Made by a program: the position numbers. A stretch of 64,000 nt of DNA from a virus (Duplodnaviria > Heunggongvirae > Uroviricota > Caudoviricetes): the IMG/VR virus record IMGVR_UViG_2880395615_000010; one strand, 5' to 3'. Each line of letters opens with the position of its first letter. The first letter of the stretch is position 1. Positions 24,001 through 27,000 of the stretch are shown here, in pieces.

Positions 24001-27000
24001 AGTGATAAACATCCGGCTTCTTCCACCATCGCACCGGACAGGCGACTATGAGGGGACAACGCCGCGCTCCGTTAACGCGGTAAACCCCGGTGTGTATCGT
24101 TTTTGATTATCCCCGCACACTCGCGCAGAGGAGTCTCCCTGTCGGGCTGCGGTCTCTGTTAATGAGGGAATACAGCGACGATACGGCGCATCAACAAAAC
24201 TTATTTCAGGCACTGAGTGCGGATATAGTCCTGTGCCCCTTCCAGTTGCTTGTGCATCGTCATCAGCCGCTCTCTGAGGGTGAAATAATCCCGTGTAACG
24301 GTGTCTGCCAGTTGGGGGCCGGTTGCATTATCCACGCCGGAGGTGGTGGGGGCTTCACGCACGGAGCCTGGACAGGTGGCGTTGATCCGCAGGCGCTTAC
24401 GACCAGCGGCAACGTCAGCGCGAAGAGTTTCATTTTCAGCTCTCGCATCGGCTAATTCCCTCGAGTATCTGGCATCAAGTGCAGCAACATCACGCTGGCG
24501 CTGCTGCATATCAGTAATGGTTGCATTTGCCTGCTCCAGCTCACTGACTTTTTTATCGCGCTGCTCTTTGTAGGTTATGGCGTTATCACGGTAATGATTC
24601 AGCCCCAGACTAAGCGCACCACAGGCCACCAGCAGGGCAATGATGACCACGCACAGTACGCGGTTCATTTCACCACCAGCGTATCTGACCGATGAAATAA
24701 CCGGAGGCCATAATCACAAACACCAGCCAGATAAGAATGAACTTCCAGGTGGATAATTTTTCAGCCATCACTCGAATCTCCCGAATCAGTTTGCTAAAAT
24801 CAAACACACTTTCTCCTTTGACTTTTCCAGAGTCAGGAAACACAAAACCCCGCTTGCAGCCAACAAACGGGGTTTTTACTTTTATTCACTTAGTTTTTGT
24901 CAGTTCGCAGGATTTCGTGTTATCCGTCCGTGTGAGCAAACCGCATTTTTCAGCAAAATATTCTGCTTATCTGTCAATTCCCCAGCACGCCAGCGCACTC
25001 TCCTGGTCGCGACGGGATACCTGACCGTAACAGTTGTTTGAGCGAATACGGCAGTCTCTGCCACCGTCCTTAATCCACCAGCGAATCGCCTCACACGCCC
25101 CCCTGCGATCGCCTGCATTAATTCGTTTATAAAACGTCGACGGGAAACACTTACCGGGGCCAATGTTGTACGGACAGAATGACGCAATCCCCGCTTTCTG
25201 TGGTTCGGTCAATGGCACTTTGATGTTTTTCTCCACCCATGCCAGCGCCTTATTACGCTCAATGGCGTTAACCTGAGCGCATTTTGCCTTCGACAACTTC
25301 ATGCCTGGAACAACAGGTTTACCATCCACCATGATGGCACCACGGCAGATGGTCCAGATCCCCGCACCATCACGGTATGCCGTGGTGTGGTTACCTTCCT
25401 TTTCATCCAGAAACTGGTCGAGAATATCAGGCGCAGGCGCACCAGCGGCAATCAGCGCCAGAACGGCAGCCGACAGGCCGTATTTGATTTTGGTGTTCAT
25501 GGATATTTATCAGGATTTATCGGCAACAGATAACGAGCCAGCTTATATACGTCCTTTAAGATAAGTCAGTCCTGGATGAAACCAGTAAGCCGGCACTTTT
25601 TTAAAGGGCGGATTATCAAAATCACGAAGAAGAGCCTCCCGCACAACTGCATCCTTGTCCGCACCACTGGCCAGCGCTTCAATCTCAGCAGCTATCTGCA
25701 GATATCCCATGCAACGACCAATGCACTTCATCAGCCCCTGCTTTTTATTGTTCTTCAGGTAATCAATGGCAAATTCAATGAGCTCCTCACTATGCTGGTG
25801 CGATGGCGGTGTTACTTTTCCATTTTCTGAGATGGTTATTTTCCCAGCATCACCGGATACAACAAAGGATGGCCGGTTACACTCCCATTCCAGGTCACTG
25901 AAATTATCATTATGAATACTGAAACACTCTGCGAGATTTCTGCTCATCACTTTCCGGCAATAATCGTAAAACGCAGCAAACTGCTCATCGCGGCGTTTTT
26001 TTTCAGGCTGCTGAAGATGCTCTTTCAACCATGAAGCGCAGCTTAGATTCGCCGCGCGATCAGGAATAGCTTCTTTCATTTCGTCTGCTGCAAGCACCTC
26101 ATTTTTTGTTGGGGTGCTTTTTTTCAATTCAGCGATATAGCACTCCAGTTTTTCAATACGCGATTCAACATCATCTTTTTCTGACCGCAGTGTTGACGGC
26201 GGCATCTTCAGAGAACAAGTAATTCTTCCCGGTAGCTTTCCTTTGTAGGTTATCAATACATCCTGCGCATCTAAAATTACGGGGCGCTTTTCCGGTGACG
26301 GTTCATCCCCTTCGCATAACCCGGCAACAATATCCATGAAAAACTGCTTCGCCTGTTTTTTCGCCTCAGCTTCGTAGAACTCCAGCGTGGCACCTTCAGT
26401 ACGGTCAAGACTAATCGCCACATGTGGCAACAACAACGACGGATGCCCGCCAATTTCAAGTGCCACAGTAACAGCAATCTTATCCGGGTAATTATTTATC
26501 TCTTTAACAACCAGTTCGTATTTTTTCTTCATCGCTTTAGTCTCCCCGCGCCGTCTTACGGCGGTCCTCCCTGATTTTGAAATACAGGTTAGTCAGATAC
26601 GTCAGCAGGCCAAACAGCAGACTCCCCAGTACACCTATTGCCACCCACTGGGACGGAGAGACTTTGTCCAGCAGCTGCAGTAACCAGTATCCCGTCCCCA
26701 CCGCTGACGTGGTGTATGACACACCCGTTGTGATTTTTTCCATCTGATGTATGTCTCCGTCACCGCCGACAGAAAATGAAAGTAAAGGAAAACAAAAAGC
26801 CGCCAGTGTCACCCACTGACGGCCAACTCCGGGAGCCGTGATTATGGCATTCAGGCTCTGCTAAAAATGCCAGATAACATTCCGACCAACCCCTGATTCA
26901 GGTTATAAATGACACAATATCTTGACAACATCCGTCACTGTCTGTCAGAAAATGTACTGCTAAATATAAGTATCATGTGAAGTACATCTACCCGTTTTAG

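Follow-up and report, generated by a model that had tools for sequence, protein, structure and literature searches.

A long, two-domain YdfR (DUF1327) protein encoded between the pinholin and lysozyme genes of a lambdoid prophage

Gene content of the lysis region

The DNA analyzed here, a stretch of 64,000 nucleotides (nt) from a virus of the Caudoviricetes (IMG/VR record IMGVR_UViG_2880395615_000010; hereafter the window), carries an open reading frame (ORF) for 329 amino acids (aa) between the holin gene S and the endolysin gene R. A preliminary description made from the sequence had presented it as an unrecognized gene wedged into the lysis cassette. Our results indicate that the ORF almost certainly encodes a long, two-domain protein of the YdfR (DUF1327) family, which is found in lambdoid prophages and is already catalogued and functionally uncharacterized. 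According to the ORF list, the frame is intact, starts with ATG and comprises 990 nt including the stop codon at 25543-26532, as had been described; the strand, left unstated at that time, is minus. The chance of a 329-codon open frame is about 1e-7 per start, (61/64)^329, and the length of the ORF is far above chance expectation. The features of the region are as follows.

26537-26743, minus strand: pinholin S of the phage-21 type, 68-aa form (PF04971 'P21 holin S', E 3.5e-32; 91% identity to 933W S)
26542-26545, minus strand: GGAG Shine-Dalgarno sequence of the 329-aa ORF, read from the sequence, within the last S codons and 9 nt before the ATG
25543-26532, minus strand: long-form YdfR-family gene, 329 aa (Pfam, PHROG, exact database matches; ratio of nonsynonymous to synonymous substitution rates, dN/dS, 0.27)
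26308-26532, minus strand: N-terminal domain, aa 1-75, DUF1327 core (PF07041, E 8.5e-39; AlphaFold2 model; 41% identity to K-12 YdfR aa 1-74)
25888-26307, minus strand: mosaic linker, aa 76-215 (low AlphaFold2 confidence; variant sequences)
25546-25887, minus strand: conserved C-terminal domain, aa 216-329 (beta-hairpin sheet and helical bundle)
24967-25500, minus strand: lysozyme R with a hydrophobic N-terminus resembling a signal-arrest-release (SAR) segment (PF00959, E 2.6e-24; 92% identity to 933W R)
24201-24668, minus strand: Rz i-spanin (PF03245, E 2.2e-47)
24263-24448, minus strand: Rz1 o-spanin, embedded in Rz (ORF list)

The S stop codon occupies 26537-26539, 4 nt (26533-26536) separate it from the ATG of the ORF, and 42 nt (25501-25542) lie between the ORF and R, in agreement with the 4 and about 40 nt reported before. 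The junction ...GGGGAGAxTAAAGCGATG between S and the next gene is also present in Stx2_95 and YYZ-2008, and R of 933W begins 4 nt past S, as the 329-aa ORF does in the window. Because its Shine-Dalgarno sequence lies inside the 3' end of S, the ORF is probably translationally coupled to S. Co-transcription with the Q-dependent late lysis operon, which had been proposed earlier, is implied by the position of the gene. In a scan of 24100-27300, no promoter-like site was found on the gene's strand, and no terminator-like hairpin on that strand at the S/ORF and ORF/R junctions; promoter-like sites in the region overall were no more numerous than in shuffled sequence.

R in the window is preceded by a 42-nt A/T-rich leader with no obvious Shine-Dalgarno sequence. 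In the K-12 prophage Qin, the stop codon of ydfR overlaps the start of rrrQ (ATGA; L015 6055-6058), implying that translation of the lysozyme is coupled to ydfR there. The inserted ORF may alter the S:R expression ratio in cis, because the R leader is without a clear Shine-Dalgarno sequence and R of 933W takes the position of the ydfR-type gene.

Just upstream of the S start at 26743 (26737-26752, minus strand), the ATG of the phage-21-type dual start (S71 antiholin) is absent. The start region reads ATA CAT CAG ATG in the window and in YYZ-2008, ATG TAC CAG ATG in Stx2_95, and ATG AAA TCA ATG in essQ of K-12. The upstream S71 codon of the window is ATA instead of ATG, and therefore only the 68-aa S can be made from an ATG.

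Family identity and database presence

Residues 1-100 of the protein scored 132.1 bits (cut-off 25; E 8.5e-39) with Pfam PF07041 (DUF1327/YdfR), aligning to profile positions 1-88 of 93, and DUF1327 was the only Pfam match. In addition, PHROG 1085 was matched end to end (aa 1-329 on profile positions 1-296 of 296, E 2.5e-180). The function of PHROG 1085 is unknown, and all eight PHROG matches of the protein at E<=0.01 are labeled 'unknown function', none 'lysis'. NCBIfam gave a noise match only (HpnC, 12.7 bits). The public names of the protein are 'YdfR family protein', 'Phage protein', and 'hypothetical protein G2583_2458 [E. coli O55:H7 CB9615]'. The earlier statement that the sequence fits no known lysis or structural family thus stands in that none of known function was matched, and falls in that a known family, YdfR, fits. 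Likewise, the profile search suggested at that time did give a strong match to a family tied to the lysis cassette by position, although that family has no characterized function.

The gene shows the location described for YdfR, with a class II (P21-type) holin gene on one side and a lambdoid-prophage lysozyme gene on the other. The same S-gene-R layout is found in K-12 Qin, YYZ-2008, phage 86, UTI89, and JA0257, and the H-19B match falls at the corresponding position. Since K-12 Qin shares the arrangement, the gene is neither unrecognized nor an unusual insertion; it represents a catalogued family in its usual position rather than a new insertion. The expectation that S is followed directly by R holds for 933W with its 4-nt junction, but not as the norm for this cassette type, as Qin, YYZ-2008, and phage 86 have S-ydfR-R.

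At least 999 public contigs carry the exact 329-aa sequence. O55:H7 DEC5B and other strains match the 2-kb S-ORF-R block with 100% identity, and at least 80% of this block is covered in 494 complete E. coli genomes. Among 5426 complete E. coli genomes, the N-terminal module was detected in 3159 (58%), with a maximum of 8 copies per genome, and the C-terminal module in 787. The surrounding prophage corresponds to the non-stx lambdoid prophage adjoining mtfA in O55:H7 (PMC9413875).

Protein anatomy and predicted structure

The protein has a mass of about 37 kDa and an isoelectric point of 6.1, and is Lys/Glu-rich with several Cys, as noted earlier (47 K+R, 51 D+E, 9 Cys). In a 19-residue Kyte-Doolittle scan its maximum score was 1.09, compared with 1.83 for S and 1.74 for R, and no transmembrane, signal, or SAR segment was found. 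It is predicted to be soluble and cytoplasmic.

A full-length AlphaFold2 model built from a 35-sequence alignment contained two confident domains with a low-confidence linker between them, the second domain comprising aa 220-329. The N-terminal domain (aa 1-72) was predicted as a beta-beta-beta-alpha fold with strands at aa 5-14, 18-27, and 37-43 and a helix at 50-73; the block predicted local distance difference test (pLDDT) scores were 65-89 over aa 1-70. A small N-terminal domain followed by an outward-pointing helix, as in the AlphaFold model of K-12 YdfR (P76160), is seen in this model; the comparison rests on an outline description of P76160 (PMC13232886). In the linker, pLDDT was below 50 for aa 73-120 and 139-215, and coiled-coil-like helices were predicted at aa 122-138 and 178-204.

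The C-terminal 114 aa folded alone gave a pLDDT of 90.1 and a predicted template modeling (pTM) score of 0.83. This predicted fold consists of a beta-hairpin sheet of three strands, then a helical bundle, and ends in a conserved tail at the C-terminus. Ten residues of this domain are invariant across E. coli and Salmonella (G272, R273, L278, Q279, A281, P309, K311, W317, P320, and Y324), and H247 and E283 are nearly so. A Pfam scan of ten C-terminal domains at E<=5 gave no consistent family, and a sequence profile search of the PDB from alignment A3 gave no credible match.

Relationship to known YdfR proteins and selection

YdfR of E. coli K-12 (b1555, P76160; cryptic prophage Qin) occupies the same slot, essQ-ydfR-rrrQ, with the 4-nt gap past the holin, followed by rzpQ/rzoQ. 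Like the window protein it contains DUF1327, with 41% identity over aa 1-74, the region reported as RNase E-binding. However, it has 103 aa and the N-terminal domain only, with an unrelated short helical tail, and is without the coiled-coil linker and the 114-aa C-terminal domain. A much closer relative is BCI50300 of Stx2_95 (329 aa), with 96% nucleotide identity over the full length and the same S-gene-R layout. Phage 86 gp05 (268 aa) has the N- and C-terminal domains in common with the window protein, but in phage 86 and several others the linker is shorter or swapped, and R is preceded by a convergent 104-aa gene (PHROG 1853), which is absent from the window and Stx2_95.

Homologs in Salmonella enterica prophages (P0130, 266 aa; P0206, 305 aa) have the same build of N-terminal domain, coiled coil, and C-terminal domain, and keep the motifs GRCMGxLQxAAEIE and DNPPFK...W..PG..YLK. 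Their identity is 30-40%, they fall below the Pfam DUF1327 threshold, and the protein at Salmonella locus L020 matches PHROG 1085 end to end. Unlike the E. coli genes, they are located not between S and R but upstream of the holin, after Q and a toxin-antitoxin module of the ParE or HicAB type, with a convergent small gene after them, and the accompanying holins are of two Pfam families, PF16080 or PF04971. The two-domain build in Salmonella and the end-to-end match to PHROG 1085 suggest that the two-domain form is probably ancestral. If so, the short YdfR proteins of K-12 and most Shiga toxin (Stx) phages would be truncations or module losses.

An exhaustive representative search with aa 101-329 as query (E<=0.001) found 30 proteins, a scan of viral contigs with P0144 as query gave no matches, and the family was confined to prophages of Escherichia/Shigella and Salmonella. 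It comprises about a dozen length classes from 103 to 333 aa, including a 305-aa class with an alternative C-terminus. Short islands in the linker are conserved (for example, SPEKRP-ILEAQDV, LRSEKDD-ESRIEKLE, and KKRRDEQFAAFYDYC), and the segments between them are swapped or deleted among variants.

Compared with Stx2_95, dN/dS was 0.27 for the whole gene, 0.19 for the N-terminal domain, 0.35 for the linker, and 0.14 for the C-terminal domain; against four homologs the C-terminal domain gave 0.15-0.39. The gene is evidently under purifying selection, as judged from these substitution ratios. This speaks against the call of the Prokaryotic Genome Annotation Pipeline (PGAP) in DEC5B (L002 20369-21400, identical to window 25543-26532), where the first 336 nt (112 codons) are annotated as a pseudogene, 'YdfR family protein, incomplete, missing C-terminus', and the remaining 650-700 nt or so of the intact ORF are without annotation. 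Many C-terminal domain matches in other complete genomes also had no annotated feature. Two modest new points emerge: the N-terminal module alone is described by Pfam and, in some genomes including DEC5B, by PGAP, and the C-terminal domain, a conserved fold orphan, is widespread and frequently without annotation.

Polymorphism at the S-R junction

As the suggested survey of related prophages revealed, the presence and length of the gene at the S-R junction vary from 0 to 329 aa. In the loci examined, the contents of the junction are as follows.

933W: none; R starts 4 nt after S
K-12 Qin: 103 aa
JA0257: 104 aa and a convergent 79-aa gene
YYZ-2008: 114 aa
UTI89: 114 aa and a convergent gene
Escherichia sp. 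L007: 185 aa, C-terminal domain only
PhiR5_1: 211 aa and a convergent 86-aa gene
Stx2_12E129: 213 aa, C-terminal domain only, and a convergent 104-aa gene
Strain A34: 259 aa with a different N-terminus, and a convergent gene
Phage 86: 268 aa and a convergent 104-aa gene
Stx2_95 and the window: 329 aa, no convergent gene

N-only, C-only, and N+C forms thus all occur at this site. In the phage collection, the P21-type S was found in 415 records and the DUF1327 N-terminal module in 96. In agreement with its earlier designation as a cargo gene, the gene behaves as optional cargo: S abuts R in 933W, and these proteins are 91% and 92% identical to S and R of the window. Because near-identical S/R pairs work without it in viable phages, the gene is not required for lysis, and it is very probably a dispensable late accessory outside the lysis machinery.

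In other prophages, a small convergent gene comes after most YdfR-family genes; no counterpart of it was found in the window.

L004 3317-3631, L003 2866-3180, L020 5307-5624, and L022 5308-5625, minus strand: convergent genes, also present at L005, L018, L024, L025, and L026

The type of about 105 aa belongs to PHROG 1853 (unknown function), with 42-48% identity between E. coli and Salmonella, and further types belong to PHROG 2572 (unknown function) and DUF1883. The YdfR locus may therefore be a two-gene accessory island. The DUF1883 gene, which lies beside one Salmonella homolog, was considered as a conserved partner and rejected, as the convergent genes in E. coli are unrelated to it (PHROG 1853 or 2572).

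A possible role in RNA decay

The only experimental data for the YdfR family come from a single study of the K-12 protein (Gopel et al., 2026; PMC13232886). Its bacterial two-hybrid screen, in which RNase G served as bait, yielded residues 1-72 of YdfR three times. The full-length protein interacted with Rne 1-597, Rne 1-598 co-eluted with Strep-YdfR, and the eluate was rich in DNase-resistant nucleic acid (PMC13232886). For H-19B and Stx phages, literature searches yielded no functional study of a gene at the S-R junction, and ydfR is unmentioned in the main text of Paradis-Bleau (2014).

By homology, the N-terminal beta-beta-beta-alpha domain of the window protein could dock on RNase E, at its catalytic N-terminal half, and/or on RNA. 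The coiled-coil linker might oligomerize the protein, the conserved orphan C-terminal domain might add a second binding specificity, and the net effect would be that host or phage RNA decay is modulated late in the lytic cycle. T4 Srd, T7 gp0.7, and phiKZ Dip are phage proteins that bind or modify RNase E and reprogram RNA decay. They offer a precedent, by likeness of function, for the role suggested by the K-12 data; however, they act early or in mid-infection, whereas the window gene lies in a late operon.

Several observations weigh against this role. The RNase E data concern the short K-12 homolog, which is 41% identical to the N-terminal domain of the window protein, and its authors caution that a contaminating protein could explain the RNA retained in the eluate (PMC13232886). 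Overproduction of K-12 YdfR was non-toxic and changed the transcriptome very little (PMC13232886). C-only forms occur at the S-R junction, so the locus manages without the N-terminal domain. The pTM of the full-length model was 0.36, giving no confident interdomain geometry. For the C-terminal domain, no relative was found in PDB, BFVD, or Pfam, and no significant fold match among solved or predicted viral structures.

Taken together, the RNase E/RNA mechanism is possible but rather doubtful. The explanation that we prefer as a whole, a long two-domain YdfR form that serves as an optional late accessory with a proposed RNase E/RNA role, is somewhat better placed, and we put it forward tentatively. 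Two points matter for the RNase E lead and for studies of lysis timing and toxin release in Stx phages: the short forms that are common in the family resemble truncated versions of a conserved two-domain protein, and the C-terminal domain of that protein has no Pfam model and is often unannotated. YdfR-type genes are located within the lysis cassette of Shiga toxin-carrying prophages.

A bolder version, which we consider distinctly improbable, is that the ancestral YdfR protein was a late effector with two heads. Its N-terminal domain would act on the RNase E catalytic half or RNA, and its C-terminal domain would recruit or block a second partner, reprogramming RNA decay or gating pinholin triggering before lysis. 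If this were true, the S-R junction of Stx-type phages would be a host-takeover site and not a passive cargo slot, and the Pfam model and the K-12 protein would cover the first head alone.

Alternative explanations

The gene could instead code for a cytoplasmic regulator of lysis timing, a soluble protein that is co-produced with the pinholin and binds its charged cytoplasmic tail, or the SAR endolysin before its release, and so tunes the lysis clock. P1 LydB and T4 RIII are soluble or cytoplasmic antiholin-type regulators, and the window gene resembles them in being holin-adjacent, non-essential, and soluble. Such regulators are typically non-essential, so that absence from 933W is compatible with this role. 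The gene lies directly after S in every E. coli example inspected, with the 4-nt junction and the Shine-Dalgarno sequence inside S, and another regulator could be useful to an S without the upstream antiholin start codon. However, Stx2_95 carries the dual start as well as the 329-aa gene. By Kyte-Doolittle, PHROG, and Pfam analyses, the protein belongs to no holin/antiholin or annotated lysis family: it has no transmembrane or signal segment, and unlike LydB and RIII, it has PHROG matches of unknown function only. In Salmonella, a convergent gene stands between the homolog and the holin, and the holins belong to different Pfam families. N-only and C-only forms are interchangeable at one site, and overproduction of K-12 YdfR had no growth or lysis phenotype (PMC13232886). 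We regard such a regulator as unlikely.

Equally unlikely in our view is that the gene is arms-race cargo for anti-defense, superinfection exclusion, or inter-phage competition. Such a function would explain the extreme mosaicism of the locus, with its hypervariable, domain-shuffled family of about a dozen length classes and alternative C-termini. Near-identical cassettes are polymorphic for presence or absence of the gene, small convergent genes of several unrelated families follow it in many relatives, and the Salmonella gene is part of the cargo region from Q to the holin, with toxin-antitoxin modules next to it. Against this, the search of the PADLOC-DB 2.0 defense models returned 0 families at E<=0.1, and the convergent partner gene is absent from the window. 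No promoter of its own was found, so expression in the lysogen is not expected, and late expression would come at the wrong time for anti-defense. The dN/dS values lie far under 1, and none of the pairs tested gave a sign of diversifying selection. The superinfection-exclusion or anti-defense function suggested in the preliminary description thus gained no positive support. The Tai tail-assembly-inhibition systems were also considered as a match for lysis-region cargo and rejected, as the Tai paper makes no mention of holin or endolysin and has no link to the locus.

A non-functional relic, with an open frame that is decaying or fused within a degraded prophage, is very improbable: the PGAP call, the frameshifted integrase and several pseudogenes upstream of S in the DEC5B prophage, and the many truncated or frameshifted relatives would fit it, but the 329-codon frame is intact with dN/dS of 0.14-0.39, the identical protein recurs on public contigs, long forms are present in the sequenced phage genomes of phage 86, PhiR5_1, and Stx2_95, the N+C architecture is kept in Salmonella at 30-40% identity, and the C-terminal domain fold is of high confidence.

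Other features of the surrounding prophage

Fragments of a nanS-p-type esterase gene lie between the transfer RNA (tRNA) genes and S (27036-28762, minus strand). They comprise ORFs of 77, 217, and 124 aa, which correspond to pieces of DUF1737 and DUF6645 and, in DEC5B, are annotated by PGAP as partial pseudogenes. The cargo region between Q and S has decayed in this prophage. Three phage tRNA genes (Met/Ile-CAT, Arg-TCG, and Arg-TCT), followed by a match to the small RNA (sRNA) STnc100 (132 bits), are located at 29360-29875 on the minus strand. An IraM-like anti-adaptor ORF of 111 aa (28999-29334, plus strand) adjoins the tRNA genes in the opposite orientation. In the early region, Rfam matches were obtained to the sok antitoxin RNA of a hokD-type module (34120-34295, minus strand) and to the DicF sRNA (39873-39924, plus strand), and these matches would give the prophage a Qin-like immunity and division-inhibition region.

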